64,000 bases of DNA, taken from the sequence record EU863408; one strand, 5' to 3'. Below the pieces are notes generated by a model. That model saw only the letters and a list, made by a program, of their open reading frames with translations, was not told the DNA's origin and did not search any database. The stretch is from Escherichia phage JSE. A program made the translations under genes and the position numbers. Positions 2,995 through 57,535 of this stretch are shown here, piece after piece; position 1 is the stretch's first letter, and each line of letters starts with the position of its first letter.

Positions 2995-3022
2995 ATTATA
3001 GAGAATCTCCCTTGTATGTCAA
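2995..3022 (-). promoter_or_regulatory. sigma70-type early promoter
   Basis: minus strand TTGACA, 16-nt spacer, TATAAT, followed by GGGAGTCTCCC inverted repeat. Confidence 0.55.
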
Positions 3023-3582
3023 CTAAAATTTAAAGATGCAAACTCCCCGTGATGAATTTTTGCATATTCATCATATGCTCTAGCGGCTTCCTCCTGAGTA
3101 GCAAACGATCCTATGTATTTTCTGTATCCGTTTATCCTTATTTGTGCTTGCCACGGTCTTTTGCTCGATCCTTTGCGATGAGTAACACCATTATATATGC
3201 TCGTGCACCCGTCCATTTTCTTTTTATTGTACATGTTTTGTTGTTGTGTTGCCTCCCGTAAATTTGGTGGATTGTTGTTTTCTGGATTCCCGTCTATGTG
3301 GTCTATTACCTTAACCTGTGTTCCATATTCAAGAAACCAGACAATTCTATGTACAAGATATGTAGATGTTCTCTTTTTAACCTTATTGTAAACATCTATT
3401 GCCAAATGACCGTAATTTAACTTTTTTGTTTTTACTTTATCACCGACTTGGTAGAAATATCCCTCTGGTAGACCATTAAAAGACGGACTATTTGTTTTGT
3501 GATATAGAACACCTTCCGTGTGTCCAAATCTTCGTTTTAATTCCTCTTGAATTTCAGTATTCCAAAATTTCGCACTTTTCAT
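3019..3582 (-). CDS. free-standing HNH homing endonuclease with C-terminal AP2-type DNA-binding domain
   Basis: 187 aa; HNH core HIDGNPENNNPPNLREAT; AP2-like tail (YNGVT...WQAQI...GSFATQEEAARAYD); start 1 nt after gene 39 stop; paralog at 56960-57535. Confidence 0.8.
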   Translation of the reverse strand: MKSAKFWNTEIQEELKRRFGHTEGVLYHKTNSPSFNGLPEGYFYQVGDKVKTKKLNYGHLAIDVYNKVKKRTSTYLVHRIVWFLEYGTQVKVIDHIDGNPENNNPPNLREATQQQNMYNKKKMDGCTSIYNGVTHRKGSSKRPWQAQIRINGYRKYIGSFATQEEAARAYDEYAKIHHGEFASLNFS

Positions 3583-3583
3583 A

Positions 3584-5407
3584 TTATGACGCCATCCATG
3601 CCTTCCTCATGTCTGAATCTTCACTATAGAGCAAATCGAATAGCTCTTTATAGTTTTCCGGTAACGTGATGATCTCCATGACAGGATCGTTGATCACGCG
3701 ATGATAGTCTGATTCTGTGAGCGATGCTAAACCTTTGATATATCGAATGTTGTAACCTTTGATATTATCTCGGTCGTTCTCGAAATCTTCTAGGTCATAA
3801 TACCATCGAACATCATCACCTTTCTTTGGTTCAGCAATGATAATAGGTGTTTTGATAAACCGGATTCGTCCATCTTCGAACAATTCAGGCCAACGTGCAA
3901 AGAAAGAGATCAGACTAGGTTTAATAGACCCGATCCCGTCAGTATCAGCGTCGGTCATAATCGCAATATTTTTGTATTGCATAACTTCCAATGCATCAAC
4001 ACCAAATTGCAAGCCAGTGATCGCCATGATGTTAAAAATTTCGGCGTTCTTAACGATCTTTGCCTCCGGTTGTTCCCACGTTGTAAGAGTTTTGCCTCGC
4101 AACGGGAAACCTCCATGTAAATCTTGATCACGTACAGAGATCAGATAGTTGATCGCGGAATCACCTTCCGTCAAAAACAGGGTAGTTTCTGCGTCAGTTC
4201 CAATAAGGTTAGCTTTAACGTGTTTTGCTACCTTAGCCCGTTTTGCTGCCTTTGCTGCCTTAGTCGCTGCCGCTTTATCTGCTGCCTCTTTGCGTGCCAG
4301 GACTACAGCAATAATAGGCATGATAATGTTTTCTTTCTTCGCAATGACTTTAGCCAGCTTTTTAAAATCAAGATCAATATGACGCTTGATATCACCAGTT
4401 GGGTTAGTCAAGCGTTCTTTTGTCTGTGAATCAAAACGAAGGTTAGGCAATTCACGAACAATCAAAATACAGGTCAATCCAGACTTAACCGCAGCTTTAG
4501 TAACATCAACCTTATATTCTTTCTTGATTCGTTTTACAATCTCTTCACAAAGATCATCTGTCACGTAGTCTACGTGTGTTCCCCCGTTTTTGGTAAACAG
4601 ACCGTTAGCAAAGGATACTGATTTAAAACCTTCTCCCTCGACCGCCGGAACTAGGGCAAGTGAAAAGTTTTTATCTTCAATGACAAACGGATCATCATTG
4701 TATAGTTTAGCATAATCCTTGAACTTACTAACAATACGTTTACCATTAAACTTAAACGTGATCTTAGGAAATATTACGCTCAATGATTGCAGACGATCAT
4801 GAACAATATCTAAAACAGAGTTGTCCATCATATAACCTTCGAAGTGGTCGAAGTCTGGGCAAAATGTAACCTTTGTTCCCTTCAATTTTGATGGTTTCGA
4901 TGACCATGTGATATTTTCAGCACCGTTTGTACATTGAACGGTCATTTCTGTTTCGCCGTCACAGGTCACACCAGTAAACCAATCGCTAAAGAAATTTGAT
5001 AACGACGACCCAACACCGTTCATCCCTTGCGTTAATCGATTGGTATCATCAAAGTTAGACCCTGCTTTTGTTCGTGTCCATGCGGCTACAGGTTGCGGAA
5101 TCTGCGTACCCTCTGGGGTAGTAACCATATGTTGAGGAATACCGCGACCGTTGTCTGTTACCGTAACAATATTGTTTTGGATATCGACGCTAATCACATT
5201 GGCAAATTCAAAATTAGTGCGAATCGCCTCGTCTACAGAGTTGTCGATGATCTCATCAATGATTTTCACCAGTCCAGGAACATATGAAATTTTTGTCCAT
5301 TTACCGAACAGGAAACGTTGATGTTCTTCGTAAGTTGTTGATCCTATATACATTCCTGCACGCTTAAGGACATGCTCACGATCAGATAAAATGCGAAACT
5401 CACTCAT
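3584..5407 (-). CDS. 39: DNA topoisomerase II large subunit (GyrB-like), gene 39 fused with gene-60 region
   Basis: 607 aa; N-terminus MSEFRILSDREHVLKRAGMYIGS; GHKL ATPase and TOPRIM motifs; one continuous ORF through the region that T4 encodes as gene 60. Confidence 0.9.
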   Translation of the reverse strand: MSEFRILSDREHVLKRAGMYIGSTTYEEHQRFLFGKWTKISYVPGLVKIIDEIIDNSVDEAIRTNFEFANVISVDIQNNIVTVTDNGRGIPQHMVTTPEGTQIPQPVAAWTRTKAGSNFDDTNRLTQGMNGVGSSLSNFFSDWFTGVTCDGETEMTVQCTNGAENITWSSKPSKLKGTKVTFCPDFDHFEGYMMDNSVLDIVHDRLQSLSVIFPKITFKFNGKRIVSKFKDYAKLYNDDPFVIEDKNFSLALVPAVEGEGFKSVSFANGLFTKNGGTHVDYVTDDLCEEIVKRIKKEYKVDVTKAAVKSGLTCILIVRELPNLRFDSQTKERLTNPTGDIKRHIDLDFKKLAKVIAKKENIIMPIIAVVLARKEAADKAAATKAAKAAKRAKVAKHVKANLIGTDAETTLFLTEGDSAINYLISVRDQDLHGGFPLRGKTLTTWEQPEAKIVKNAEIFNIMAITGLQFGVDALEVMQYKNIAIMTDADTDGIGSIKPSLISFFARWPELFEDGRIRFIKTPIIIAEPKKGDDVRWYYDLEDFENDRDNIKGYNIRYIKGLASLTESDYHRVINDPVMEIITLPENYKELFDLLYSEDSDMRKAWMAS

Positions 5408-5510
5408 TATTAAACCTCTTCATAACATAACCATAACTTACTGCAACCGCCACAAAGACGGCTGCAACAATCATATTAAAAATTGAGTGATTGTCAAGTA
5501 TATGACTCAT
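5400..5510 (-). CDS. small hydrophobic ORF (36 aa)
   Basis: hand-translated; ATGA overlap with upstream gene, stop overlaps gene 39 start; one predicted TM segment. Confidence 0.3.
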   Translation of the reverse strand: MSHILDNHSIFNMIVAAVFVAVAVSYGYVMKRFNNE

Positions 5511-5680
5511 GACACGCGCACATTTTTATCATAGTACCCGCCATTAATACCGCGCGGGGCAGTTAATCCCTGTTTGCATTCTTTACCACATTCAGGGCAT
5601 TCTGCCTTTTCACGTTCGGAAATTTTGCGGATTTTCTGAAATTGACCGTGTTCTTCACAAGAATAATCATATAATGGCAT
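5507..5680 (-). CDS. zinc-ribbon protein (FmdB-like CxxC...CxxC)
   Basis: track ORF 5507-5761; likely start MPLYDYSCEEHG at 5678-5680; CEEH...CPEC pairs. Confidence 0.5.
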   Translation of the reverse strand: MPLYDYSCEEHGQFQKIRKISEREKAECPECGKECKQGLTAPRGINGGYYDKNVRVS

Positions 5681-5681
5681 A

Positions 5682-6350
5682 TTATCCCCTTTGTTTCTTA
5701 ACTGAATTTGGATCTGGATTTTCTGGCAAGTCTTCCAGACCCATAGCATAACGTTGTGCATAGATTAGCATAAGAATATCGCGAGCGCAATCATGAATTG
5801 CGTCATGCGCGATAAATCCGTCTAGCGTACCCATTGGTAACGGGCATTCACACATACCACGATGCATCAATGTACGCTCAATGGCGGTGCGAACATCTCG
5901 GATATTCCAGAATCGCACAGGTTCAAGGCTGAACGTCTCTCGTGTATTGTGTGCACGGCGGATCATATCAACTAGTAACGGAATATCAAACGCATTACCG
6001 CGTGACCACATTACGGATTTAACCGGATCTACTCCTACGGCTTCACAGAATGCGTTAAAACGCGCTAAACCTTCTTTAGTTGATACTTCCGTACCATTTG
6101 TGATTAATTGCTTTCTCATGCCTTCTGAGGCGGTATTCTTCCACCATTCAACCACACCATGATCAAACACCCTTACACCTTTCTGGGAAGGAATATCAAA
6201 TTTTACCAGAAAGGAATTGTCAACCAGTTCTTTAAATGTAGGTGGATTGTGCGGATCTTCTTTAAATCCGATTGCCGCCATATTGATAACCGCCCCATCA
6301 GGCGGATAACCTAAACTTTCAAAGTCAATCATTAAATCCACTGGAAGCAT
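5682..6350 (-). CDS. dexA: exonuclease A (DnaQ-like 3'-5' exonuclease)
   Basis: track ORF 5682-6422; start MLPVDLMIDFESLG at 6348-6350 with SD GGAGG; between gene 39 and dda as in T4. Confidence 0.8.
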   Translation of the reverse strand: MLPVDLMIDFESLGYPPDGAVINMAAIGFKEDPHNPPTFKELVDNSFLVKFDIPSQKGVRVFDHGVVEWWKNTASEGMRKQLITNGTEVSTKEGLARFNAFCEAVGVDPVKSVMWSRGNAFDIPLLVDMIRRAHNTRETFSLEPVRFWNIRDVRTAIERTLMHRGMCECPLPMGTLDGFIAHDAIHDCARDILMLIYAQRYAMGLEDLPENPDPNSVKKQRG

Positions 6351-6351
6351 T

Positions 6352-6594
6352 TTAAATATCCTCCGCGATATGCCGGAACAACTCCAGATCGTTTTTATCC
6401 AGAATGAAACCGCTACAATCAATAATCCCGTTACCGTAATTATCGGTTAACAGTCGTTCCGTTGCCATGTATGCGCGTACTTTGTTGTTAAAATTCATTA
6501 CATGTTGTGCATAGTCACAATGAATCTTTTGACGGTTCCACGCGACAATTGATTGTAGATGTATTACATTAGCCACATTATTAATAACAACCAT
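6352..6594 (-). CDS. hypothetical protein
   Basis: 80-aa ORF. Confidence 0.4.
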   Translation of the reverse strand: MVVINNVANVIHLQSIVAWNRQKIHCDYAQHVMNFNNKVRAYMATERLLTDNYGNGIIDCSGFILDKNDLELFRHIAEDI

Positions 6595-6595
6595 A

Positions 6596-6769
6596 TCAAA
6601 AACCTCGCTTAGTGAAATGCTCGATCATTTTATTGATACATGCAGCTTCACTATCGCCGGACACGTTCCAGCCGTATAGACCCCATCTAAAGCACATGGT
6701 AACAGTTCCATTGTGACGGCTTACCGTCACATCATTAAATTCTGGGATACTTCGCATAATCATAATAAT
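6596..6769 (-). CDS. small hypothetical ORF (~57 aa)
   Basis: hand-translated; SD GAGGA before ATG at 6767-6769; fills the gap downstream of dda. Confidence 0.35.
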   Translation of the reverse strand: MIMIMRSIPEFNDVTVSRHNGTVTMCFRWGLYGWNVSGDSEAACINKMIEHFTKRGF

Positions 6770-6773
6770 TTCC

Positions 6774-9234: not shown

Positions 9235-9262
9235 AATTGATTCTCCTTAGTTGGTATGTGTG

Positions 9263-9832: not shown

Positions 9833-9880
9833 ATAATAAAACCATTGATTGAGTTTGTCAATCACAAAGTGTATGTGATC

Positions 9881-9888
9881 TATAAATA
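9881..9888 (+). promoter_or_regulatory. candidate T4-type late promoter (TATAAATA)
   Basis: exact TATAAATA about 30 nt before the plus-strand endonuclease ATG; RBS AAAGGAGA. Confidence 0.45.
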
Positions 9889-9917
9889 AGTTTGTTAGAA
9901 CTAAAGGAGATCACAAA

Positions 9918-10838
9918 ATGAACTATAAACGTATTTATGATAACCTGATTGAACGTGCTAAGACTAGAAATATCGACGGATACACAGAAAAGCATCACAT
10001 CATACCACGTTGTATGGATGGAAGCGATGACCCCACCAACCTAGTAAGACTTACACCAGAAGAACATTATATGGCACATCTTTTGTTAGTTAAGATATAT
10101 CCAGATAATAATAAACTGATATATGCCGCTAACATGATGTGCGTTTCTTGTCATGGACAAAGACAAACAAATAAGCGTCACGGATGGTTGCGTAGAAAAA
10201 CGGCGGAAGCGCATAGTAAAAGAATACGCGATAGAATGGAGAACGATCCAGAATATAGATCTAAGGTTTCGGAATGGGCTAGAAAAATGGGTAAAGCCAT
10301 GAAAGGCGTTAAGCGAGGACCGGAATTTAGCAGAAAGTTGGCAGAAAGAAACAGAAATACCGTGATGAGAGAAGAAACTAAACGTAAGATCGGGGAAGCC
10401 AACAAAGGAAAGAAACGTACAGAAGAATATAAAAGAAAACATAGTGAAAGGTATAAAGGTGAAGGTAATCCGATGTATGGTAAACGAGGAAAGGACCATC
10501 CGGCATATGGTACTAAACCGTGGAACAACCAAACATCATTTGTTGAGCAGAAAGCATGGTGGCGGTTCGCTGGCATGTTTTATGACTGGTATCGGAGAGA
10601 TATTGACCGTGGAACACATAAACGCCACGGTCATAAGAGAATGTTGGATGAGTTAGGTTTCGTTGGTTGGCGAGAAAAAGAGCCAGCCGCAGCAAGACGA
10701 TCAATTGAGATGTTCGCTAAAGGCTGGAATCCTTATGAAGACCAAGAATGGTTAGATTATGTTAATACCCGCTTTCCAAACGACGATAGTTTTCCGCGTT
10801 CTTCAACATATACAAGACAAACAGATCCTTCGCAGTAA
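9918..10838 (+). CDS. free-standing HNH homing endonuclease with NUMOD3-type repeats
   Basis: 306 aa; HNH core EKHHIIPRCMDGSDDPTNLVRLTPEEHYMAH; repeated basic ETKRKIGEANKGK-type motifs; the only long plus-strand gene here. Confidence 0.8.
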   Translation: MNYKRIYDNLIERAKTRNIDGYTEKHHIIPRCMDGSDDPTNLVRLTPEEHYMAHLLLVKIYPDNNKLIYAANMMCVSCHGQRQTNKRHGWLRRKTAEAHSKRIRDRMENDPEYRSKVSEWARKMGKAMKGVKRGPEFSRKLAERNRNTVMREETKRKIGEANKGKKRTEEYKRKHSERYKGEGNPMYGKRGKDHPAYGTKPWNNQTSFVEQKAWWRFAGMFYDWYRRDIDRGTHKRHGHKRMLDELGFVGWREKEPAAARRSIEMFAKGWNPYEDQEWLDYVNTRFPNDDSFPRSSTYTRQTDPSQ

Positions 10839-11280
10839 GCCCCAACGCCAAGAATTTACACATAATGAAATGGAGTTGGTCGACGGCTTCTAGGTATGTT
10901 TCCAAACGATCCGCCTCAGATAAATCACTAAAGAGGCGGTTTCGTGCTTCCATATGATTGGCTTTCCAGTGTTTCCACACCGCGCTAGCGTCTTTCCCGT
11001 TAGACATACCACCCAACGCAGTATACAGTTCTCGCGTTTCGTCGTCAAGCGCATTATCATTAGCTCGAATAAAATCTAAAATCTCTCCACATGTTTTCAA
11101 TTCATCAATTTTTGCTACCCACGGACGGTCATTAGATACCTGGTCTTGTAGTGCTTTCTGCATGTCCATCATGTGTTGAAATGGGTTATCACCGTTGGCG
11201 ATAATTTCTTTATATTTTTCTTCTGCAAAATTCAGAGTTTCCGCGTTTACTAAGTGTGCACAAGAATTAAATTCTGACAT
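10762..11280 (-). CDS. 56: dCTP pyrophosphatase (MazG-like)
   Basis: track ORF 10762-11286 (GTG); ATG at 11278-11280 with SD GAGGTG; about 172 aa; immediately downstream of primase as T4 gene 56. Confidence 0.75.
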   Translation of the reverse strand: MSEFNSCAHLVNAETLNFAEEKYKEIIANGDNPFQHMMDMQKALQDQVSNDRPWVAKIDELKTCGEILDFIRANDNALDDETRELYTALGGMSNGKDASAVWKHWKANHMEARNRLFSDLSEADRLETYLEAVDQLHFIMCKFLALGLTAKDLFVLYMLKNAENYRRLESGY

Positions 11281-18538: not shown

Positions 18539-19002
18539 CATTATGTTCAGCGTGGTTCGCTACTCCCGCGCCCGTTCTCTTGCGAACTGCTACATGTCAC
18601 CATGTAGATCAGACTATATCACATTCTCATAGAGAATCCTGCCATTTCGAATCGCTTGATTCTACTCTACTCGGTTCGTTACCCTTTCGATAGTCGTTGA
18701 ACAACTGCATCTTTAAGCTCATTTTGATCAAACGGTGTTCTCTTACAGTATCCGCTATAATTCTTCACCCTGATACGGATTAGACACCAGTTTAATGTAG
18801 TCGTTTAATGCTTCCTCGTTATGTATTTCGTACTTTCTTAAAATGTCTTTCATCTCGCGCCTCCAATGTATATCAATATCTATATACATTATAAGACACG
18901 TTAGCTCAAAATGCAACTGCTGCTGATTGTCTCCTTAGAGATTTCCCAGCAATTAAGCAGGTTATTCGATCACTGTCACCAGTGAAAGCCCCATATCAGT
19001 TT
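18539..19002 (-). mobile_element. group I intron in gene 43 (464 nt, no endonuclease ORF)
   Basis: exon 1 ends ...TSL (CCCU|) then in-frame stop; intron AAACUGAUAUGGGG...GAACAUAAUG|; contains UUCAACGACUA and GAUAUAGUCU cores; splicing restores DLTSLYPSII. Confidence 0.8.
18755..18853 (-). CDS. small intron-internal ORF (32 aa)
   Basis: hand-translated MKDILRKYEIHNEEALNDYIKLVSNPYQGEEL; SD GGAGG; no endonuclease motif. Confidence 0.25.
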   Translation of the reverse strand: MKDILRKYEIHNEEALNDYIKLVSNPYQGEEL

Positions 19003-20204
19003 AGGGAAGTAAGGTCAAAGCTCATCATCCAACGGTAAGCATTCGGCACAGGTTCTTTTACGAATGCGCCCGGATAAGTCTGCTTAGGCTGTATCTTGTT
19101 CTCTGGTACTACTTTACCCTCAGCTTTCAGAGATCCGAAGATAATAGCATCCCATACTTTCATCGGGTTATAAACATGGTTAAATTTAATCTTTGCATAG
19201 AAACATAGGCTATACACCAGATCGATAAATCCGCGCTTTTTATCAATCGCCAACACACGGTCAACGTCGCCGATGTTATAATCGATGTAAAGTTGATGGT
19301 TGTCATCACGCAATTTCTTTAACGGACCATCATAATCAACCTTACCGATTCCTGTCTCATATTCAGCAACATAATCTAACGCATATGTTGGTTGAGTCGT
19401 AAAGCTAAATTTCTTGTACAGGTCAATATAATCAAGGCTTTCGATCCCCATGATCGTAAATGCTTCACGCTCGTTGCCAAAATCATCCTGTGAGATTCGG
19501 GATTTAATCTTACCGCACGGGCTTAGACGGTTAGCGGTTCTACTTCCGAACTTATTACTGATACGTTTAATGATATATGGAATATCGAATGTTTCTGTGT
19601 TCCAGCCAGTGAAACCAACGGGTCGGTTTTCCTCAAAGAATCGGATGTATTCTAACAGCAATTCATCTTCTGTGTCATAGACGTTATAAACAACGCGCTC
19701 TACAATATCAGGTCGAAGAATAGACTTGCTAGATTCCCAGATTTCACCGTTTTTTCCTTTCAAATCAAATACAAAGAAACGATCATGTACGGAATCATAA
19801 TGCGTAATTGCATCGATAGGATATTTCGCTTCTTCTGGTTTAGGAAATTCTGGGGCAGTGACCTCGATATCAACCCATGCTACACGGATTTTATTTCGGT
19901 CATATCGAATCTCGCCTTTATACGTATCAGACAGATAGGAGATGATAAAGTCATCCATCCCTAGCGCCTCCTGCCCCATTTCTCCCATCTTTTTACGCCA
20001 TTTGTTGGCCTCGTTCATAGATGGGAATTTTTTAGCAATGCAAGGCTTGCCATAGATATCTTTATAATTCGTAACCATACCAGGCGCGGCATGATGAAAT
20101 AAAGTTGGCGTATATTCAACGTAACGCTCTTGTTCTTGTCCAGCATCATCAATATAACGCTCGTAGATCTTATCACCCACTCGCTCACATGACAGAAAAT
20201 ACAT
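19003..20204 (-). CDS. 43: DNA polymerase gp43, exon 1 (N-terminal and 3'-5' exonuclease domains)
   Basis: track ORF 18996-20234; start at ATG 20202-20204 (SD AAGGAG; MYFLSCERVGDKIYERYID matches T4 gp43 N-terminus); Exo motifs; ends at SFDLTSL. Confidence 0.85.
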
Positions 20205-27082: not shown

Positions 27083-28108
27083 CTAACTTTTTGCGTTATT
27101 TACTTCGGCTAAAAGTTCATCAGAAATACGCTTGACCGCCGCAAGTTCTTCCGGTTCTAGGTTTTGTTCTTCCAGATATTCATAGACCATCTGAATAGTG
27201 CTTTTAACTTCAATAACACCTGTTTCCTGTGATGCGCTACTCTCCAGTTTATGGACCACCTTTAGCTTGTGTACAACGGCCTCTAACGCGCTTTCTAACT
27301 TAGTTAACCCATTATCAGCGACCGTTGCGATAAGACGCACACTAAGCCCTTTAAAGCGTTCTACATCGATTTTATCGTCTGACGGGTAAGTGATACGCAC
27401 ATGATAAGTTTTGTCATTCTGAATAAACTCTTTTTTGTGTGTATCGGTATCGAATACCCAAAAACCACGCGGATCGTTTTCGTCACCCGCCGTTAGTGTG
27501 TATGGTGTACCAATATACGTTACGTTACCGCCATCACTGATAGTATGAAAGTGTCCCGAAAACACTTCACGGTATTTCTTGAGGAAGTCCGCGCTATAAC
27601 CTTCGGATTTTAGCCCTTTATAGAAATAGTAGCCAGACAATTCCCAATGGCCTACACAATATTCGCTGAATGAGTTTTGAATAAACTCTAAAATCTCTGA
27701 TTTATTGTCATCACAAAACCACGGGAACAGGTCAAATGATACACCATCAAAGGTAACTGTTTCCGGTTTATCGATAACCTTAATGCAATCATACTGGCTT
27801 AACACTTCACGCGGTGCGTTAGGCTGGATCTTATGACGTTTGAATAGATCATGGTTCCCTACGGTCACATAACAGGTGATTCCAGATTCTTCCAGTAACG
27901 GGATGACCTTAGTACGGTTAAAACTCATCGTCGCATGAGTAATAGCTTTTCGGCAATCAAACCAATCCCCTGTTTGAATCCATGTCTTAATATTATGCTC
28001 TTTGGAGTATTCAACCGCTTTCTTGATGGTATCAAGAATATACTCATGCACCCACGGATCATCGCCACCGATACCAGTATGCAGATCACCTAAAAGCAAA
28101 ATTTTCAT
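27083..28108 (-). CDS. 47: recombination endonuclease subunit (Mre11/SbcD-like phosphoesterase)
   Basis: 341 aa; calcineurin-like motifs (GDLHTG, GDWFD, GNHD). Confidence 0.85.
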   Translation of the reverse strand: MKILLLGDLHTGIGGDDPWVHEYILDTIKKAVEYSKEHNIKTWIQTGDWFDCRKAITHATMSFNRTKVIPLLEESGITCYVTVGNHDLFKRHKIQPNAPREVLSQYDCIKVIDKPETVTFDGVSFDLFPWFCDDNKSEILEFIQNSFSEYCVGHWELSGYYFYKGLKSEGYSADFLKKYREVFSGHFHTISDGGNVTYIGTPYTLTAGDENDPRGFWVFDTDTHKKEFIQNDKTYHVRITYPSDDKIDVERFKGLSVRLIATVADNGLTKLESALEAVVHKLKVVHKLESSASQETGVIEVKSTIQMVYEYLEEQNLEPEELAAVKRISDELLAEVNNAKS

Positions 28109-28199
28109 AGTCTCTTCCTCTCTTCGTTTTCGATGCTCTCACTATATCACAGAAAAATAAAAAGGGAAACCCCTTTCAGAGTCTCCCTTATAAAAGCCA

Positions 28200-35714: not shown

Positions 35715-36707
35715 TTACATGTGCTTAACGCGGTTTACCATCTCGGAGTGTTTCCCGTGGTTAAATGGACGCAGATCAACAGATCCAAGATATCCACTAA
35801 CGCGACGGATAACATTCATCTTTTCCAGATTGTCATTTCCGCAATCAGGGCAAACAAAACCAGACTCGGTCGCTCTCATTTCCTTATTAGATCCGCATAC
35901 ATGACATACATCAGAAGGAGTATTAACACCGAAGTAGTGCAATTTATCCATTGCATAGTCTACTACAGTTTCAAGACCTTTCAGGTTGTTTTTCATGTCT
36001 GGGAACTCAACATAAGAGATCATGCCACCGGACGCCAGCCAGTGATAATCTTTCTCAAAGTCGATTTTCTCAAATGGTGTGACTTTCCGGTCTACGTCAA
36101 GGTGGAATGAGTTGGTGTACCAGTCTTTATCGGTAGCACCCTTAACAATACCAAATTGCTCTCTGTCCAGTCGATTAAATCGATAGCAAAGGCTCTCGGC
36201 TGGCGTACCGTAAAGACTAAACCCAAGTCCGGTTTCGTCCTTCCATTTTTCAGTATAATGACGCAAGATCTTAAGAATATGTTTACCGTATCGCTGCGCA
36301 TCTTCCGAATCAAACGGATGAACACCAAACAGGACGCTCAATACCTCATGTAAACCAATATATCCAAGAGAGATACTAGCGCGACCATCTTTCAGCACTT
36401 CCAAAATTTCATCGTTTTGATGAATACGGAAAAATGCACCTTCTGTATACAGTACAGGAGCAACATTGGCTTTAGCCCCTTTTAAAGCGTCTACGCGACT
36501 CATAAGCGCATCAAAGCAAATAGGCATACGATTAGCTAGCTCTTGTTCGAATAGCTCAATTCTGCGCATTACAGACGCTTTACCAGCACGACGCGCGGCA
36601 ATAAGAGCAATACGCGGAAGATTCAGAGTCACAACACCCAAGTTATTACGTCCGTCTAATACTTCCTCGCCTTTCTCGTTATGCCACACACCCAGGAAAC
36701 TTCTACA
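35715..36707 (-). CDS. nrdD: anaerobic ribonucleotide reductase NrdD, exon 2
   Basis: 330 aa starting CRSFLGVW; glycyl-radical motif RVSGYLG; C-terminal CxxC...CxxC. Confidence 0.85.
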   Translation of the reverse strand, partial: CRSFLGVWHNEKGEEVLDGRNNLGVVTLNLPRIALIAARRAGKASVMRRIELFEQELANRMPICFDALMSRVDALKGAKANVAPVLYTEGAFFRIHQNDEILEVLKDGRASISLGYIGLHEVLSVLFGVHPFDSEDAQRYGKHILKILRHYTEKWKDETGLGFSLYGTPAESLCYRFNRLDREQFGIVKGATDKDWYTNSFHLDVDRKVTPFEKIDFEKDYHWLASGGMISYVEFPDMKNNLKGLETVVDYAMDKLHYFGVNTPSDVCHVCGSNKEMRATESGFVCPDCGNDNLEKMNVIRRVSGYLGSVDLRPFNHGKHSEMVNRVKHM

Positions 36708-37467
36708 CATTATTTGTTCAGGGTAGGTCGCTAATCTACCCCCGCCTTTCGGCTGCTACATGTCGCCATGCAGATCAGACTATATCTTCTATCTTTCGAT
36801 AGTCTACCATTTCGGATCGCTTGATCCTACGCCGCTACATTCATCACGGCTAGTCGTTAGGCATTTCATAGCGGAACTCATATTCATAAGTATTGGTTTT
36901 TCTACCATCAAGAATTGCAGATACATTTTTACGATGCAAGCCCAATGTTTCAGAAAGACTTCTCACGCTTTTAAATGTCTGCTCTTGTCCGGTTTCTTTA
37001 TGGATCGCAGTAACCTTATATGAACGACGTTTGAACTTATAGCACCCGTTTTCGTAACCTTCTTTCGTGTTTTCGCTGTTAGTCCCCCACTCAAGGTTAG
37101 ATGCATCGTTTATAGTTTTATCGTCGTTTTTATGTTTCACATATCGATAGCCGTTAGGATTCGGAATCCAACATTCAGCCACAATAACATGAACACGCAA
37201 ACATAAAGGTTTCTTGTCTCTCCTTACCCTTACTAATGTATATCCGGTATTGTTTTCTATCCAGGTACTCAACTGTTTACCTTTAGGAGAAAACACCCGT
37301 CCATCTTTCGATACCATATATTCGGTATCACGAATTTTTCTAAGTTCCATAATATATCCTCTTATACACATTGGCGTAAAGAGAATATGACCGCTATGTT
37401 TAGCACGGGATTGTCTTCTAGAGAGTTCCCCCGTTTAGGCAGATTTTAGATGAGCTGTTTAAAGTTT
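36708..37467 (-). mobile_element. group I intron in nrdD carrying an HNH homing endonuclease gene
   Basis: exon 1 ends ...SPMG (GGGU|); intron AAACUUUAAAC...GGGGGAACUCUCUAGAAGACAAUCCCGUGCUAAA...CUGAACAAAUAAUG|; cores CCUAACGACUAG and GAUAUAGUCUGAUCUGCAUGG shared with the gene 43 intron. Confidence 0.8.
36850..37350 (-). CDS. intron-encoded HNH homing endonuclease (NUMOD4/HNH_3 with IENR1-like tail)
   Basis: track ORF 36850-37371; start MELRK at 37348-37350 with SD AAGAGGA; HVIVAECWIPNPNGYRYVKHKNDDKTINDASNLEWGT; stop overlaps intron core. Confidence 0.8.
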   Translation of the reverse strand: MELRKIRDTEYMVSKDGRVFSPKGKQLSTWIENNTGYTLVRVRRDKKPLCLRVHVIVAECWIPNPNGYRYVKHKNDDKTINDASNLEWGTNSENTKEGYENGCYKFKRRSYKVTAIHKETGQEQTFKSVRSLSETLGLHRKNVSAILDGRKTNTYEYEFRYEMPND

Positions 37468-38337
37468 ACCCATCGGGCTAACCGGAACACTAGATCCAGT
37501 GATGCTACGGTTATTCTTCGCAGAGATATAATCAGGGTAAAGACGCTTACTAGAACATTCCAATGCAAGTTGCTTAATGTCGTAGTTCGGATCTTCCGGT
37601 TTAAGGTTTAATCCTTCTTCTAAGAACATCACCAGCTTAGGAAACACCGGAGTTATACCGTCTTTACCTAAACCTTTAGTTCGAACTTTCAGGATCGCTT
37701 TCTGAATCAGTTTTTCTTCCCAGCTAGTACCCATACCAAAGGTTAAAGTCACAAAAGGTGTTTGACCGTTGGTAGAGAACAAAGTGTTGATCTCATATTC
37801 CAACGCCTGATATCCGTCTAACGTTTCTTTTTCTGTTTTCTCTTGTGCATAGAGAGTATCAGCTTTGATTCCGTAGGTTTCGGCATCAGCAAGGTGTTTA
37901 TGATATGTTTTCTTAACATACGGCGCTAACACCTGGTCGATGTTTGCAATTGTGGTCCCGCCATATTGATGACTTGCCACCTGTGCGATAATTTGAGCGG
38001 TTACAGCACATGCAACACCGATCGATTTAGGACTTTCGATTTGTGCGCTACCCAATTTAAAACCATTCTCTAACATGTCTTTGAGATTAACAAGACAGCA
38101 GTTAGTAAACGGCATAGCTGGTGCATAATCCATATCATGATAATGAATATCACCGTCTACATGCGCTTTATAGATGTGCTCAGGTAACACGGTTTTAGCA
38201 ATATGTTTAGACACAGCGCCAGCAATCAGATCTCGACGTGTCGGGAATGTTCGCGCGTCTTTGTTCGCGTTCTCTTTGCTTACTTCGTTTTCTTTACCCG
38301 TTGCGATCTCTGTAATGTCTTTGATTAGTTTTTCCAT
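37468..38337 (-). CDS. nrdD: anaerobic ribonucleotide reductase NrdD, exon 1
   Basis: 290 codons ending ...SSVPVSPMG; in-frame stop 2 codons into the intron; joins to CRSFL of exon 2. Confidence 0.85.
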
Positions 38338-52228: not shown

Positions 52229-52243
52229 AATATAAACCTCTCA

Positions 52244-52603
52244 TTAGTCACGGGAAGACAACCCAGCCATAAAACGGCTTAACAGTGTGTCGCGATAAGC
52301 AAAGCATAATTGCTTATCAGGGGCAGTATCACAAAGGTTGCGTTTTGTTTTAGCAAAGCTGGCAATACTCAGATCCCACGCTCGATTTTTTCGTTTTTCG
52401 TCTCGACCTTGTTTGTATGCTTCGTCGAGTTCAAGTGCGATAAAATCACTACACATGTTATCATCATCACAGAAAGTTTTAATGATCTTTTTGTTGATCT
52501 CAAATCCTTTGTATTCGAACTTTGGATAAGGGCGCTCATTACTAGCAAGCGCACCAGCCGAGAACATCATAGCAATCATAGCAATTATTGTCAACTTTTT
52601 CAT
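52244..52603 (-). CDS. secreted protein (signal peptide)
   Basis: 119 aa; N-terminus MKKLTIIAMIAMMFSAGALA; several Cys. Confidence 0.5.
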   Translation of the reverse strand: MKKLTIIAMIAMMFSAGALASNERPYPKFEYKGFEINKKIIKTFCDDDNMCSDFIALELDEAYKQGRDEKRKNRAWDLSIASFAKTKRNLCDTAPDKQLCFAYRDTLLSRFMAGLSSRD

Positions 52604-52610
52604 ATATTCC

Positions 52611-53201: not shown

Positions 53202-53235
53202 TAATTTCTCCTGTTTGGCTTAACTTTCTGATTCC

Positions 53236-53264
53236 ATAATATAGCCCTATCACCAGAAAGTCAA
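53236..53264 (-). promoter_or_regulatory. sigma70-type promoter
   Basis: minus strand AATGCTTGACT (TTGACT), 17-nt spacer, TATTAT. Confidence 0.45.
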
Positions 53265-53287
53265 GCATTATTTTTAACCAATTTCCA

Positions 53288-53710
53288 TTATTGGTCTACC
53301 TTCAAAACAACCGCCGACATTTTACCCGCCAGTCGTTTTGGATTCTCTATAATCATTCGGCAGCATAGACCGTGATATGGCTTACCCTCTTCGATTAGAT
53401 CTACTGTCATCCCGATCCACATGTTACCGTCAGTAATTTCTAATCGATTCGGTCGGTCTTCCATTTTCAGGAAGTCGAAGATCTCCGGCAAACGAGTTTC
53501 TATCTTATTGAATAGTTCCATTGTCTTATGTTCATCGATATGACGATCGGTTAGACGGTCGATCATATGCGGACTAAAGCGAATGAAAATATACTCACCG
53601 TAACCATCATTCAAGCACTTTTCTTTGATCTGCGCATTGGTTTTGCGCATTTCGGTTTCGAAGAATCTACGCAGCTTACTACGGCGAACATGTACGTTAA
53701 TTGTTTCCAT
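53288..53710 (-). CDS. regB: RegB endoribonuclease
   Basis: track ORF 53288-53752; start METINVHVRRSKLRR at 53708-53710; RLEITDGNMWIGMTV and CRMIIENPKRLAGK match T4 RegB. Confidence 0.75.
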   Translation of the reverse strand: METINVHVRRSKLRRFFETEMRKTNAQIKEKCLNDGYGEYIFIRFSPHMIDRLTDRHIDEHKTMELFNKIETRLPEIFDFLKMEDRPNRLEITDGNMWIGMTVDLIEEGKPYHGLCCRMIIENPKRLAGKMSAVVLKVDQ

Positions 53711-53714
53711 TTTA

Positions 53715-54050
53715 TTATCCTTTCTTAAACAAATTGCGAATCCAGTATACAAACGGGATTTCTTTAAACTTGAATTTCTCTATAGTTAATTCTTTAGTAG
53801 CAAGATGAATACCATAAGCATCATGTGTAACTATATGCCATTTTCTATAGCCCAAATGTGAACAACCGTCTGGATCTAGGTTAATAAGAGTTTCTCGCTC
53901 ACTAGGATTATTTTTCCACAATTTTGTAATAGGATCGCACATAATTCGACCTAGCGTACCATGAATAATCTCACAACGGTAAAGTTTTCCAGCAGTGAGA
54001 TAGGCGCACCCGTCATAGTCGGTATAAACAAACACTTCTTTAACACTCAT
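53715..54050 (-). CDS. hypothetical protein (tandem paralog family C)
   Basis: track ORF 53715-54110; start at ATG 54048-54050 (SD AAAGGAG); DPDGCSHLGYRKW module shared with next two ORFs. Confidence 0.45.
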   Translation of the reverse strand: MSVKEVFVYTDYDGCAYLTAGKLYRCEIIHGTLGRIMCDPITKLWKNNPSERETLINLDPDGCSHLGYRKWHIVTHDAYGIHLATKELTIEKFKFKEIPFVYWIRNLFKKG

Positions 54051-54081
54051 TTTAATACTCCTTTGTTGTTTCGATGGGGGT

Positions 54082-54110
54082 ATATTACTACCCCCGATCA
54101 TGTGTGTCAA
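54082..54110 (-). promoter_or_regulatory. sigma70-type early promoter (PeSL)
   Basis: minus strand TTGACA, 17-nt spacer with GGGGGUA/UACCCCC stem, TAATAT. Confidence 0.55.
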
Positions 54111-54354
54111 CTACTTTTTCAAGATTTTTTTTGATTGCATTCCAAAGACCTTTATTTCCAGGTTGTTTTGGTTCTTCGATCAGTGTCCATGTTCGACCGT
54201 CTAAGTGTGCACAATTTTTAAGGCAAATAAAAATCTGGTGTCCCTTATCAGCACGGATATAACCACTATTCGCAAATCTTTCATGTGGTGTATATTCATA
54301 CAGTGTATTAGGTGTAATATACTTGCGGTTACTATAAGGTGTCATCACATACAT
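54088..54354 (-). CDS. hypothetical protein (family C)
   Basis: track ORF 54088-54372; ...KNCAHLDGRTWTLIEEP module. Confidence 0.45.
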   Translation of the reverse strand: MYVMTPYSNRKYITPNTLYEYTPHERFANSGYIRADKGHQIFICLKNCAHLDGRTWTLIEEPKQPGNKGLWNAIKKNLEKVVDTHDRG

Positions 54355-54548
54355 CATGGTACTAACTCCCAACGATCACCGCGAAGATGAGAACATCCAC
54401 CATCAAGAAGTATCGTAATACGATAACCTATATCATCTTTGATGTAACCGATTGTCGGTGGATTTTCGTCGTCTCGTGCCGGGGTAAAATCATACATCTT
54501 TCCGGGCGTAATATCTTGTCCTTTATTGCTATTGGTATAAACTTGCAT
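54354..54548 (-). CDS. hypothetical protein (family C)
   Basis: 64 aa; ...DGGCSHLRGDRWELVP module. Confidence 0.45.
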   Translation of the reverse strand: MQVYTNSNKGQDITPGKMYDFTPARDDENPPTIGYIKDDIGYRITILLDGGCSHLRGDRWELVP

Positions 54549-54569
54549 TTTCTTAATCTCCTATATTAA

Positions 54570-55268
54570 CTAACCACGGGTATAGTGTTCCAGAACAACG
54601 GTCAGATGAATATATTCTAATAGATCTTTCCAAAAGTCAACATCTGGTTCTTCCGGCATACCGTTTTTCTTTGCCTCTTCACGCGCGAGTTTAACACGCT
54701 CGTAGAGATCTTTCAATTCTTCCCGCACATTATCAAAGGTTCTTTCTCCTAACTTACACGCTAAAATAGAAGAACGTCGCGCGAGCGGGAATTGTAGATC
54801 ACCTGTCTGATAGATTTCAAGTAGCTGATAACCAACACGCAGAGCATGAGAAAGATCTTTCCAGTTACTGAAATACTTTTCAGATTTGGCTACCTGCTTT
54901 TTGAGATAGCCAGACAAACCCCACATACCAACATGATAGAATTTATCTCGATGTGTTCGGATGTATTCCCATTCTCTGGAGGATTCAACCAACATGTTAC
55001 TAGGCGCGTGCACCATATCAATAGCGCCGATATCGCCTTTACATGCCAGATTGATAAACCGTTTTAGACTGAACATATTAACGTCAATATCGTCTTTGGT
55101 GTTCTTGATCCCTTGACCGCTAGTGCTTTGATCATAGTGTTCTTTCATCGATCCTAAGATAATTTCTTTCGCAGTCGGAACAAAGATACCACGATAATCT
55201 TTATCGGAATTTTCAGTATCAAGGCCGTATAAGTGAGATCCGAAGACCATTTTAACCATTGTATGCAT
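54570..55268 (-). CDS. predicted nucleotidyltransferase (pol-beta superfamily)
   Basis: 232 aa; N-terminal GSHLYGLDTENSDKDYRGIF fits the G[SG]...D.D signature. Confidence 0.55.
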   Translation of the reverse strand: MHTMVKMVFGSHLYGLDTENSDKDYRGIFVPTAKEIILGSMKEHYDQSTSGQGIKNTKDDIDVNMFSLKRFINLACKGDIGAIDMVHAPSNMLVESSREWEYIRTHRDKFYHVGMWGLSGYLKKQVAKSEKYFSNWKDLSHALRVGYQLLEIYQTGDLQFPLARRSSILACKLGERTFDNVREELKDLYERVKLAREEAKKNGMPEEPDVDFWKDLLEYIHLTVVLEHYTRG

Positions 55269-55281
55269 AATTAAACCCTCA

Positions 55282-55812
55282 TTAGTATTTTACGTTACGT
55301 CGAACGCCTTTTCGAATCTGACAAATAGCAGACGGTGAAACATTATATTTTCTTGCAAGTTCTACACCCTTCATATGGGGAGAAGATAAAATCTCTTCCA
55401 CTTGGTCGTCGGTAAGTTTTGCGTTTCCGTGGTTCTCTCCCCAATTTTTGTTTAATCCTTCTTCCTTCGCATGAACAAGATTTCGGGTATCTGTCGTCCA
55501 TTCAAGATTATAAAGGTCATAGTTTTGTTTGTTTCCATCCTTATGATTAACTACACGGTAGTTATTTGGATTCGGAATAAACGCAACCGCCATAGCTTTA
55601 TGCATGTTCACGGTTTTTCTAAATCCATCCGGCTTATAACATACTGTAAATTTAGAATAACCAGTTTTACCATAAACACTAATATAATTTCCGGTCTCCG
55701 TATTTCTAACCCTACCATGAGAGCTAATCTCAAATTGAGTGTAGGGCAACAGCGCATCAATCACTTTCCATTCTTCGACAGGATGGTCATCACAATATCT
55801 TTTAATCATCAT
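55282..55812 (-). CDS. free-standing HNH homing endonuclease (NUMOD4/HNH_3 with C-terminal HTH)
   Basis: 176 aa; EEWKVIDALLPYTQFEISSHGRVRN; HKAMAVAFIPNPNNYRVVNHKDGNKQNYDLYNLEWTT; directly after terminator 55822-55852. Confidence 0.8.
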   Translation of the reverse strand: MMIKRYCDDHPVEEWKVIDALLPYTQFEISSHGRVRNTETGNYISVYGKTGYSKFTVCYKPDGFRKTVNMHKAMAVAFIPNPNNYRVVNHKDGNKQNYDLYNLEWTTDTRNLVHAKEEGLNKNWGENHGNAKLTDDQVEEILSSPHMKGVELARKYNVSPSAICQIRKGVRRNVKY

Positions 55813-55821
55813 ATCACCTCA

Positions 55822-55852
55822 TAAAAATAAAGCCAACCCTTTCGGATTGGCT
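55822..55852 (-). terminator. intrinsic terminator after GrcA-like gene
   Basis: minus RNA AGCCAAUCC-GAAA-GGGUUGGCU then UUAUUUUUAU. Confidence 0.6.
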
Positions 55853-55859
55853 TAAAAAT

Positions 55860-56276
55860 TTACATTGCTTCCGTAAAGGTGCGCGAAATAACGTCACGTT
55901 GTTGGTCTGGAGTCAGACTATTGAATCTTACGGCATATCCGCTAACGCGAATGGTTAGTTGCGGATACTTATCAGGATTAGCAACCGCATCGAGAAGAAG
56001 ATCGCGACTCATAACATTGATATTAGCGTGCTGACCACCTTCGACAACCGGAGCACCATTATCTACAATCACCGGACGGAAGCTAGTTGTGTGCAGTGCC
56101 AGAGAATCGACGTCTTCTGCGGTGATCACATGGTCTTCTGCGAAAGTTTTACTAACAATTACTTTAGCGCCGATCAGTGCTTTCGGTTCGGATACCAGAA
56201 TCATAGGCGCGAAGTGTCCACCAATAATAGTACCTTTATGCTCACCTTTCATGATTTGAATTGCTTTAAATTCCAT
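55860..56276 (-). CDS. autonomous glycyl radical cofactor (GrcA/YfiD-like)
   Basis: 138 aa; C-terminus [33 protein letters not shown] near-identical to E. coli GrcA. Confidence 0.8.
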
Positions 56277-56283
56277 AATTCAC

Positions 56284-56412
56284 CTCTTATAGATCAGGAC
56301 GTTCGTCATTAATTTTACCAACCAAAACACCATAGAGTTTATCAGGTTGGACTTTACGATTCTTTTTAATTGTAGCACGGAATCGACGAGCTACGCTATC
56401 TTTATTTTTCAT
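56284..56412 (-). CDS. small basic ORF (42 aa)
   Basis: hand-translated MKNKDSVARRFRATIKKNRKVQPDKLYGVLVGKINDERPDL; TAATG overlap with upstream stop. Confidence 0.35.
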
Positions 56413-56897
56413 TAGTTGATACCTAAGCCAATGAAAATAGGTTGGTCTTCTACATTACCCATCCCAACACTAAGTCGATTCAATTCTAAAAACTGCAATA
56501 CGCTGTCAGTAAATCCGCGCATGGTAGTATCTAGGATAAAAATTGTTTTGTCAAGACTACGACCTCGCCATGTGATCGGATTCAGGAAAGTTCGGATAGA
56601 TGTACAATCTACATCTGAAATATTTACATTTTCACCGCGACCGCGATCTCGGATCGTTTTGGCATGTTCCCGCGTCGTTGAAACGATAAAGACACTATAG
56701 CCTTTTCGCGTATAATGGTCATATAACTTGATTGTAGCGTCTGTATGCCCTGTCTGACGGCCTAAATTGATTGAGACGATGGAATCTAGGTCATCAGCAA
56801 AATTGCGTCGCTTACGGCGTTCTATGATGCCATTTACGGCAGATACACACGCAGCATAAATCAAATCTTTACTTTCTAATTTTACATCAATATTCAT
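56412..56897 (-). CDS. hypothetical protein
   Basis: 161-aa ORF; preceded by inverted repeat ACGGGGAGA...UCUCCCCGU. Confidence 0.5.
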   Translation of the reverse strand: MNIDVKLESKDLIYAACVSAVNGIIERRKRRNFADDLDSIVSINLGRQTGHTDATIKLYDHYTRKGYSVFIVSTTREHAKTIRDRGRGENVNISDVDCTSIRTFLNPITWRGRSLDKTIFILDTTMRGFTDSVLQFLELNRLSVGMGNVEDQPIFIGLGIN

Positions 56898-56959
56898 GGT
56901 AAAGTCTCCAGTGAACGGGGAGAGATCCTTAGATTGTCTCCCCGTTGATGGTTAATATT

Positions 56960-57535
56960 TTATTTTGGATCTGGGAAATTCAATAGAGCATATTCTCCAT
57001 AAAATTTCCTAGCTGCATTATCATAAGCGATTGCAGCTTCGATTTCTGTGTCATATTGTCCAAGAACATGTCTTTGTAGGTTGACCATTATACTAGCTCT
57101 CCATTTCTTACGCAAATCCTTCCTGTTACACTTACTAACACCCTTATACACACTAGAAAACTTTTTAGACTTCTTCTTTCTATTATGTTGATTTTGCGCG
57201 TCGGTTGCCTCCCTAAGATTTGGAGGATTGTTATTAGCAGGATTACCGTCAATATGATCAATTAATCTAACTTGCGTCCCATGTTCTAGAAACCAAACAA
57301 CCCTATGCACGAATAGATGAACTCTAGGAAGACCGTCATCTCTACTATGCCAAAATCTAAGATGACCATCTTTATTTGTTCTGACTTTAACTAAATCGCC
57401 GTGTTTATATCTACTCCCTAATGGTCGTCCTTTGATAGCTTTACTATCGACTCTATAATATAAGATACCCTCTATATGAGCATATCTAAGTTTTATCTCG
57501 TTTTGTAGGGATTCATCCCAATATTTAAAAGCCAT
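56960..57535 (-). CDS. free-standing HNH homing endonuclease with AP2-type domain (paralog of 3019-3582)
   Basis: 191 aa; HRVVWFLEHGTQVRLIDHIDGNPANNNPPNLREAT; also similar to 3019-3582 at nucleotide level. Confidence 0.8.
   Translation of the reverse strand: MAFKYWDESLQNEIKLRYAHIEGILYYRVDSKAIKGRPLGSRYKHGDLVKVRTNKDGHLRFWHSRDDGLPRVHLFVHRVVWFLEHGTQVRLIDHIDGNPANNNPPNLREATDAQNQHNRKKKSKKFSSVYKGVSKCNRKDLRKKWRASIMVNLQRHVLGQYDTEIEAAIAYDNAARKFYGEYALLNFPDPK

Follow-up and report, generated by a model that had tools for sequence, protein, structure and literature searches.

Homing endonuclease genes and group I introns at the left end of the Escherichia phage JSE genome

The left end of the genome of Escherichia phage JSE raises a simple question: do the HNH endonuclease genes scattered along it spread by homing, or are they there for some other reason? 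Homing endonucleases are a classic feature of T4-like phages, and JSE, which was reportedly described by Denou and colleagues in 2009, is a T4-like coliphage, an RB49-like Krischvirus. The stretch considered here (the window) comprises nucleotides 1-64000 of JSE. Seven of its proteins, looked up by exact sequence (the five endonucleases and the fragments of NrdD and of DNA polymerase), all have JSE accessions. It has about 40% G+C, nearly all of its coding sequence lies on the minus strand, and it is collinear with the left end of the RB49-like coliphages (Krischvirus), from rIIA, at 94-99% identity. An earlier note, made from the sequence of this window, listed five HNH open reading frames (ORFs). 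All five are present, intact, where it placed them, and the domain, profile and structural evidence given below supports their assignment to the HNH class. We refer to these homing endonuclease genes as HEG1 (3019-3582, minus strand), HEG2 (9918-10838, plus strand), HEG3 (36850-37350, minus strand), HEG4 (55282-55812, minus strand) and HEG5 (56960-57535, minus strand). HEG3 lies within the first of two group I introns in the window, that of nrdD; the second, an endonuclease-less intron in gene 43, is a sixth element that the earlier list did not contain. Our reading, to which we assign a probability of about 0.8, is that the window carries six independent selfish insertions that spread by homing: four free-standing HNH genes, an HNH gene in the nrdD intron, and a gene 43 intron that was recently stripped of its endonuclease gene.

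Six insertions and their distribution among relatives

The five genes represent three architectures, as had been claimed. HEG1 and HEG5 combine HNH_3 with AP2, HEG2, on the plus strand, is a Mob-like HNH gene with NUMOD3, and HEG3 and HEG4 are I-HmuI-like HNH genes. All five reading frames are uninterrupted and retain their catalytic residues. PHROG families of HNH or homing endonucleases match all five proteins with E-values from 1e-36 to 2e-78; NCBIfam models matched none of the five. A tblastn search of the window with the HNH genes found, with T4 MobC and MobD and with I-TevII revealed no additional paralogs or remnants except the relic in the gene 43 intron, the search being by these queries and not by profiles over all ORFs; with T4 I-TevII as the query, no GIY-YIG gene was detected.

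When the window is compared with RB49, the only sizeable segments specific to it are the six elements. These are 589 bp at HEG1 (3023-3611), 1396 bp that include HEG2 and a replaced gene 56 and that stand in place of 503 bp of RB49 (9862-11257), about 464 bp in gene 43 (18539-19013), 760 bp in nrdD (36708-37467), 525 bp at HEG4 (55282-55806) and 644 bp at HEG5 (56976-57619). Each endonuclease gene adjoins a conserved gene, in agreement with the earlier note: HEG1 lies beside gene 39, HEG2 beside modB and gene 56, HEG3 between the halves of nrdD, HEG4 between the GrcA-like vs.6 and nrdC.11, and HEG5 beside the gene for an M15 peptidase.

The distribution of each gene was determined by megablast, with the gene and the sequence on both sides of it as the query. 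The search covered 57 Krischvirus records other than that of JSE itself, a few of which are GenBank/RefSeq duplicates. The same gene was found at the same site in 7 of these records for HEG1, in one (G37-3) for HEG2, in three for HEG4 and in 12 for HEG5. The nrdD intron with HEG3 was found in a single record, that of phiS, which happens to be linearised inside the intron. No record of the 57 carries all five genes, and RB49 and Phi1 have none of them at these sites. Conservation at the same sites in all relatives, which the earlier note had named as a refutation, is thus contradicted, since each gene occupies its site in only 1 to 12 of the records. Other HNH genes are found at some of the same sites: seven further records have an HNH-AP2 paralog between genes 61 and 56, and nine have a different HNH gene at the HEG4 site. 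Sporadic occurrence at a fixed site in close relatives, beside or within a conserved gene, is one mark of a homing endonuclease gene, and it is seen here, with precise insertion points.

Smaller differences from RB49 were also seen. The window is without RB49p004 (192 bp; at 2599-2611) and without the RB49 HNH-AP2 gene p040 (565 bp, from a-gt.4 to gene 47; at 28105-28109), and a 197-bp segment (59605-59801) replaces 396 bp of small RB49 ORFs. At 57999-62852, on the minus strand, there are at least 12 small ORFs of about 50-90 amino acids with strongly hydrophobic products, and this run coincides with an excursion of the AT skew (+0.20) and with the strongest negative GC skew, at 58-60 kb.

The introns of nrdD and gene 43

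The nrdD insert (36708-37467, minus strand) separates exon 1, of 290 codons (37468-38337, minus strand), from exon 2, of 330 codons plus the stop (35715-36707, minus strand), and it is an exact insert relative to RB49, located between the Gly and Cys codons of SPMG/CRSF, at the codon for the catalytic cysteine. Excision of the 760 nucleotides joins CCG AUG GGU to UGU AGA AGU and yields a NrdD of 620 amino acids that differs at two residues from the uninterrupted NrdD of RB49. The insert has a U at position -1, a G as the last intron base, the P1 pairing AUGGGU/GCUCAU and the conserved group I core GAUAUAGUC. The earlier description of this insert as an nrdD intron is therefore well founded. 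The Rfam model Intron_gpI (RF00028) matches it with 27.4 bits (E 1.3e-4), and the match includes the core GAAGAUAUAGUCU. Over its 3' 170 nucleotides the insert shows clear homology to the intron of gene 43. When four related introns, admittedly a small sample, are aligned, 11 of 34 predicted pairs of the 3' domain show compensatory changes, and the covarying helices include the P7 strands GACUA/UAGUC, P9, P9.2 and one more hairpin. No RNA match was obtained at 28.2-30.7 kb, around gene 55 and its neighbours.

Within this intron the first ATG of HEG3 is at 37371, but translation probably starts at 37350, where a Shine-Dalgarno sequence precedes the codon. The stop codon of HEG3 falls inside the segment ACGACUAG, which is the 5' strand of P7, and the ORF appears, as judged by eye, to occupy a loop of the P6 region. 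The protein matches the I-HmuI_NUMOD-like profile (7e-8) and PHROG 59 (9e-38). It is 35% identical to HEG4, and both possess the motif H-K-(D/N)-...-N-L-E-W-...-N. The earlier note had classed both as NUMOD4/HNH_3 genes. This holds for HEG4, which matches both domains below their cutoffs, but in the HEG3 ORF no NUMOD4 was detected by profile search, and HNH_3 is found there with an E-value of 1e-4. I-HmuI and I-HmuII are HNH nicking endonucleases encoded by group I introns in the DNA polymerase genes of the Bacillus phages SPO1 and SP82. HEG3 and HEG4 resemble I-HmuI in possessing HNH_3 together with an I-HmuI-type NUMOD-like C-terminal module, and HEG3 resembles it further in being encoded by an intron in a replication-related phage gene, although the sequence identity is about 20% and the host gene in JSE is nrdD.

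Phapecoctavirus nieznany (segment 1501-2271) and Felixounavirus Mushroom (segment 1488-2229) have this intron too, with a homologous HNH ORF and at the same Gly/Cys boundary of nrdD. Both are annotated as two nrdD coding sequences plus a hypothetical or HNH protein, with no intron. Judged from these comparisons, the carriers of the intron belong to three different phage (sub)families. The endonucleases of nieznany and Mushroom are 50-54% identical to that of JSE and the 3' cores 71-76%, and the identity of NrdD itself to the JSE protein is 47.5% for nieznany and 31.6% for Mushroom. The element is thus better conserved than its host gene, most clearly in Mushroom, and this argues for transfer between distantly related phages. 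It is of interest to compare this intron with that of T4 nrdD (sunY), which encodes I-TevII. Both are group I introns in the same gene, with similar core sequences. However, the T4 intron interrupts the gene near residue 181, and its GIY-YIG enzyme is encoded downstream of the core, whereas the insertion point in JSE is at residue 290/291 and the enzyme is of the HNH type. The JSE nrdD intron is most closely related to the nrdD introns of Phapecoctavirus and Felixounavirus. In the literature, we found no accessible text that calls the JSE nrdD insertion a group I intron.

The intron in gene 43 is 464 nucleotides long (18539-19002, minus strand) and interrupts the Leu codon of polymerase motif A (DLTS-L-YPS). 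Intron_gpI matches it with 42.9 bits (E 1.8e-9). The group I boundary features and the exact restoration of the reading frame hold for this intron as they do for nrdD, and the predicted spliced gp43 is that of RB49 but for two residues. It retains a 32-codon remnant (18755-18853, minus strand) of a Mob-like HNH ORF of 274 amino acids. Among the 57 relatives, 45 have an uninterrupted gene 43 and 12 have the intron, always in a long form that exceeds the JSE intron by 644 bp and contains the complete 274-amino-acid ORF. The JSE intron is 99.3% identical to that of G5211 on both sides of a clean internal deletion of 644 bp. A single deletion of this kind fits the cycle of gain, decay and loss of homing endonuclease genes. 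The presence of this intron in JSE, with a truncated endonuclease gene, has already been described (PMC2993671; Petrov et al. 2010).

The free-standing genes and their neighbours

HEG1 (EpJSE_00005) begins with an ATG located 1 nucleotide past the stop codon of gene 39 (3584-5407, minus strand), which encodes the large subunit of topoisomerase II, is identified by synteny with RB49p006, and is presumed to be the target region of HEG1. At its 3' end HEG1 reaches the -35 box of a promoter-stem-loop that is common to RB49, and on the other side the last 10 or so codons of gene 39 differ between JSE and RB49. In G5211 (segment 5593-6321), a 242-amino-acid "recombination endonuclease" is encoded just upstream of gene 39. 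HEG5 (EpJSE_00105) is inserted in the last codons of the endolysin gene, that of the M15 peptidase (57581-57970, minus strand). The JSE endolysin ends in YPDPV, that of RB49 in YPDPK, and HEG5 in FPDPK. The JSE endolysin therefore has a new, diverged 3' end beside HEG5, which itself now ends like the RB49 endolysin.

HEG1 and HEG5 match Pfam HNH_3 (PF13392) with 51.8 bits (6e-14) and 40.2 bits (3e-10), both above the cutoff of 24.8, and UniRef labels both as "AP2/ERF domain-containing". In an alignment of the HEG1 family D94, H95, N103, N107 and N119 are invariant. The AlphaFold (AF2) model of HEG1, with a pLDDT (a confidence score) of 94, matches I-HmuI (1u3e) with an E-value of 4.5e-4 and a probability of 1.0. 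Residues from about 125 to 187 of the model match the AP2 domain of AtERF1 (1gcc), with a root-mean-square deviation of 1.6 Å over 61 residues and 41% identity, and also the AP2 domain of TEM1. The two proteins are 46% identical (E 1e-43). Their DNA is only 59.5% identical globally, with a single 107-bp stretch at 76.6% in the HNH core, so that the likeness claimed for this pair at both levels stands for the proteins and is weak for the DNA. On this evidence from sequence, they are old paralogs and not the products of a recent duplication. Further paralogs, RB49p040 and G2494_00017, occupy two other sites; HEG1 and HEG5 are 42-47% identical to RB49p040. HNH-AP2 homing endonucleases, among them RB49 ORF040 and those of RB16 and RB43, were reportedly described by Magnani and colleagues and by Wuitschick and colleagues, both in 2004. 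HEG1 and HEG5 share the HNH_3 plus AP2 architecture of these enzymes, with an AtERF1-like AP2 fold predicted by the HEG1 model, but the sites differ: in JSE they are between gene 39 and p005 and between the endolysin gene and vs.8, in RB49 between a-gt.4 and gene 47, and in G2494 between genes 61 and 56. In the last of these (segment 1599-2162) the paralog has taken over the ribosome-binding site of gene 56. No mapped cleavage site was found in the literature for any HNH-AP2 member of this phage group.

Inspection of the sequences downstream of these two genes suggests a further possibility. Directly downstream of HEG1 there is a PeSL-like promoter and stem-loop (2983-3012, minus strand), in which TTGACA..TATAAT surround a GGGAGA/TCTCCC stem, and directly downstream of HEG5 there is a stem-loop, AACGGGGAGA..TCTCCCCGTT (56914-56946, minus strand). 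RB49 has both of them as well, at its empty sites. In the window, RGGGAGA..TCTCCCY occurs at these two loci only, each within about 20 nucleotides of the 3' end of an HNH-AP2 gene. In RB49, a AAGGGAGAC stem-loop is found at a distance of about 55 nucleotides from the phage's own HNH-AP2 gene. The authors of the PeSL study speculated that an unknown DNA-binding protein targets GGGG...CCCC stems (PMC2839356). The G-rich PeSL elements of RB49-type phages may be recognition sites for the HNH-AP2 endonucleases, an idea to which we give little chance; if true, it would tie homing endonucleases to PeSL-mediated gene shuffling in the genus. A strict rule that HNH-AP2 genes always lie beside GGGAGA stem-loops fails, because G2494_00017, between genes 61 and 56, has no such stem-loop. 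GGGGAG stems are also found at 22.2 kb and 61.1 kb, with no endonuclease gene alongside.

HEG4 is a free-standing I-HmuI-like gene with NUMOD4 and HNH_3 that lies in a short spacer, between the terminator of vs.6 and the ribosome-binding site and start of nrdC.11. PHROG 59 ("HNH endonuclease") matches it with an E-value of 1e-36. The flanks of HEG4 are 98.5% identical in carriers and about 93.5% identical in most empty alleles, those of KFS-EC and FL15 reaching about 97.5%, and this pattern is consistent with linked flanking sequence. In G37-3 (segment 1018-1611) a different HNH gene is located between nrdC.11 and vs.6. The vs.6 gene itself (55860-56276, minus strand), downstream of which HEG4 is found, encodes a GrcA/YfiD-like autonomous glycyl-radical cofactor of 138 amino acids, with the motif RVSGYAVRF and a Gly_radical match of 5e-15.

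HEG2 differs from the others in its orientation, being opposite to its neighbours, and the earlier statement that it is the sole long plus-strand gene of the window is borne out, since all other plus-strand ORFs encode at most 183 amino acids. T4 has free-standing Mob HNH endonucleases, MobA to MobE, of which MobE has been shown to be active. HEG2 has the attributes of the T4 Mob type, namely homology to MobC and MobD, an N-terminal HNH and NUMOD3 repeats. It is 33% identical to T4 MobD over 206 amino acids (E 3e-26) and matches MobC with an E-value of 2e-17. NUMOD3 is detected by Pfam at 5e-7 (30.1 bits against a cutoff of 20.4), and PHROG 655 ("homing endonuclease") at 2e-78. The motif EKHHIIP..N..EH..AH is kept across 30 homologs, with H26, H27, N41, H50 and H54 conserved. 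In the predicted structure, strands at 24-27 and 42-45 followed by a helix at 47-60 would form a beta-beta-alpha element at this motif. A sequence search of the PDB with HEG2 returned a chance match only.

The sequence preceding HEG2 suggests that it is expressed late and autonomously, from what is otherwise a non-coding strand. A T4-type late promoter motif, TATAAATA (9881-9888, plus strand), lies 30 nucleotides before the ATG and is followed by the Shine-Dalgarno sequence AAAGGAG; only three such octamers are present in the window on both strands combined. GC skew and AT skew flip sign only at 10-12 kb of the window. An inverted repeat with a 7-bp stem, TGTGATC/GATCACA (9873-9916, plus strand), brackets the promoter motif and the Shine-Dalgarno sequence, and recalls the hairpins by which some endonuclease genes of T4 are translated from late transcripts only.

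The final 77 nucleotides of HEG2 overlap the 3' end of gene 56 (dCTPase; 10762-11280, minus strand) on the opposite strand, in a convergent arrangement. This allele of gene 56 is only 57% identical to that of RB49 in amino acids and 58% in nucleotides, whereas the DNA flanking it on both sides is 97-98% identical to RB49. Among 50,697 phage records, the JSE allele was encountered only in G37-3 (98.8%), which is the sole other carrier of HEG2; all the rest are below 60%. Because the allele occurs only with HEG2 and its flanks are 97-98% identical to RB49, we conclude that HEG2 and the foreign gene 56 allele came in together, as a single block, from an unsampled T4-like lineage. For T4, experiments have shown that SegF targets gene 56, beside which it is encoded (PMC2988022). 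By analogy with SegF, the probable target of HEG2 is the resident allele of gene 56, and repair of the cut would then copy HEG2 together with a resistant allele. It is conceivable, though not likely, that HEG2 and this allele, joined by their overlap, work as a two-gene drive cassette by which an essential gene is exchanged as a whole. PMC2993671 does not connect HEG2 with a foreign allele of gene 56.

Homing as the probable process, its alternatives and the comparison with T4

How would these elements spread? In a mixed infection with a relative that lacks the element, the endonuclease would attack the empty allele, nicking or cutting it within the neighbouring conserved gene or close to it, and the phage recombination machinery would repair the break from the JSE copy, thereby copying the endonuclease gene or the intron together with flanking sequence. 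The JSE copy would be protected by the insertion itself and by the diverged sequence that adjoins it, at the last codons of gene 39, at the 3' end of the endolysin gene and over the whole of gene 56. Self-splicing of the introns would keep nrdD and gene 43 functional. HEG1, HEG4 and HEG5 have the orientation of their flanking genes and directly follow an upstream gene or terminator, which would allow expression by read-through, and HEG2 would be expressed from its own late promoter motif on the other strand. Among the findings that support homing, diverged patches are located exactly at insertion junctions, and unlike HNH genes fill the same intergenic sites in other relatives. Cleavage, target sites, homing and splicing are what we infer from the identity of the genes, their domains, insertion points and sporadic distribution, the restored reading frames and the covariation of the RNA.

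Several observations weigh against this reading, or at least against its parts. The Pfam HNH profile (PF01844) scores 15-19 bits in HEG2 against a cutoff of 21.4, with an E-value of 0.0018 for the N-terminal 80 amino acids, and a Foldseek search with the whole HEG2 model gave nothing significant, the best matches being HNH domains at E of about 1.6. HNH_3 is just under its cutoff of 24.8 in HEG3 (22.0 bits) and in HEG4 (23.6 bits, 4e-5), as is NUMOD4 in HEG4 (5e-4), and AP2 (PF00847) scores 25.2 bits (E 2e-5) in both HEG1 and HEG5, below the cutoff of 33.3. Both introns are under the Rfam gathering threshold of 50 bits, so that they are found in E-value mode only and the whole window contains no intron at threshold. 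We attribute these low scores to interruption of the core by the ORF, since homologous ORF-containing introns in other phages likewise score only 33-40 bits, compared with 105 bits for the intron of T4 nrdD, with its uninterrupted core. Finally, the flanks of HEG1 are no more alike in carriers than in non-carriers, so that co-conversion is not visible there.

The absence of a carrier-specific haplotype around HEG1 would also be expected if the HNH genes were passengers, their patchiness being due to ordinary homologous or PeSL recombination among co-infecting Krischviruses, with nucleases that are inactive or irrelevant to spread. Genes of this kind could move without a nuclease, because PeSL-mediated insertion, deletion and replacement of ORFs has been shown for RB49 and phi1 (PMC2839356), and HEG1 and HEG5 each adjoin a PeSL-like stem-loop, which also speaks for this alternative. 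However, such an element is found on one side only of each gene, the other side being the coding end of a conserved gene, and excision by PeSL needs two. Moreover, passengers would not account for five intact ORFs with their catalytic residues, for unrelated HNH genes that recur at the same sites, for T4 endonuclease genes in the same neighbourhoods or for the diverged patches exactly at the junctions, and we therefore consider this explanation unlikely. It is very unlikely that some of the free-standing proteins have instead been domesticated, either for phage competition, by cutting rival DNA and excluding its markers, or for DNA metabolism or regulation by way of their AP2 and NUMOD modules, and no longer copy themselves. 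In its favour, T4 endonucleases are known to exclude the markers of T2 (PMC2993671), and HEG2 has its own late promoter motif and is locked to the essential gene 56 by its overlap. But one and the same cleavage leads to exclusion and to homing, which are hardly separate mechanisms, and absence from 45-56 of the 57 relatives is incompatible with an essential function.

A further alternative concerns the interrupted genes only: nrdD and gene 43 might be genes in pieces, translated as two separate polypeptides that assemble without RNA splicing. Exon 1 of nrdD runs into a stop two codons into the insert, the last three nucleotides of the insert are an in-frame ATG, annotators call two separate nrdD coding sequences, and there is a precedent in nrdA of Aeromonas phage Aeh1, which is split by mobE (PMC2988022, PMC3653736). 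Yet no Shine-Dalgarno sequence precedes the terminal ATG, and the split would fall at the catalytic cysteine in one protein and inside polymerase motif A in the other. The U at -1, the final G, the P1 pairing and the GAUAUAGUC core of the nrdD insert, the Rfam E-values of both inserts and helices that covary among four introns are likewise at odds with it, and we regard this alternative as extremely improbable.

In the table of T4 endonucleases mobA lies beside gene 39, which is listed as its target, segF beside gene 56, mobD beside nrdC.11 and I-TevII within nrdD (PMC2988022). Thus four of the five JSE neighbourhoods (39, 56, nrdC.11 and nrdD) are also colonised in T4, by different enzymes. 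The position of mobD is equivalent to that of HEG4, but HEG1 and HEG4 are members of other HNH subfamilies than mobA and mobD. HEG2, related to MobD and MobC, lies beside gene 56 as segF does. Unlike segF, it is on the opposite strand, has its own late promoter motif and overlaps gene 56 convergently, and SegF is a GIY-YIG enzyme. The high load of selfish elements claimed for the window is high for the genus, but it is below that of T4, with 15 homing endonuclease genes (PMC2988022; PMC2993671), and is typical of T4-like phages. For JSE, Table 5 of Petrov et al. 2010 (Virol J 7:292; PMC2993671) gives two HNH-AP2, two mob-like HNH, two other HNH and one seg-like gene, seven in total, with the intron entered as "relic?"; RB49 and phi1 have two each. 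The same study counted only three endonuclease genes in self-splicing introns, all in T-even-type phages. The JSE record (EU863408 / NC_012740) itself labels three of the five genes, HEG2 included, "Homing endonuclease". In view of this published count and these labels, the finding in JSE was already known in substance. The observation made in the earlier note is thus confirmed and its interpretation supported, and both the type of element and its instance in JSE are known.

In three respects these results go slightly past the accessible literature: the nrdD intron at the codon for the catalytic Cys across three (sub)families, the 644-bp loss of an endonuclease gene, and the tie of a Mob-like gene to a xenologous gene 56. 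As a whole, JSE is an endonuclease-rich member of the RB49 group. Its value lies in the clean natural series to which it belongs, 57 near-identical genomes in which five loci are filled, empty or differently filled, and which offer ready pairs of donors and recipients for work on homing and marker exclusion.

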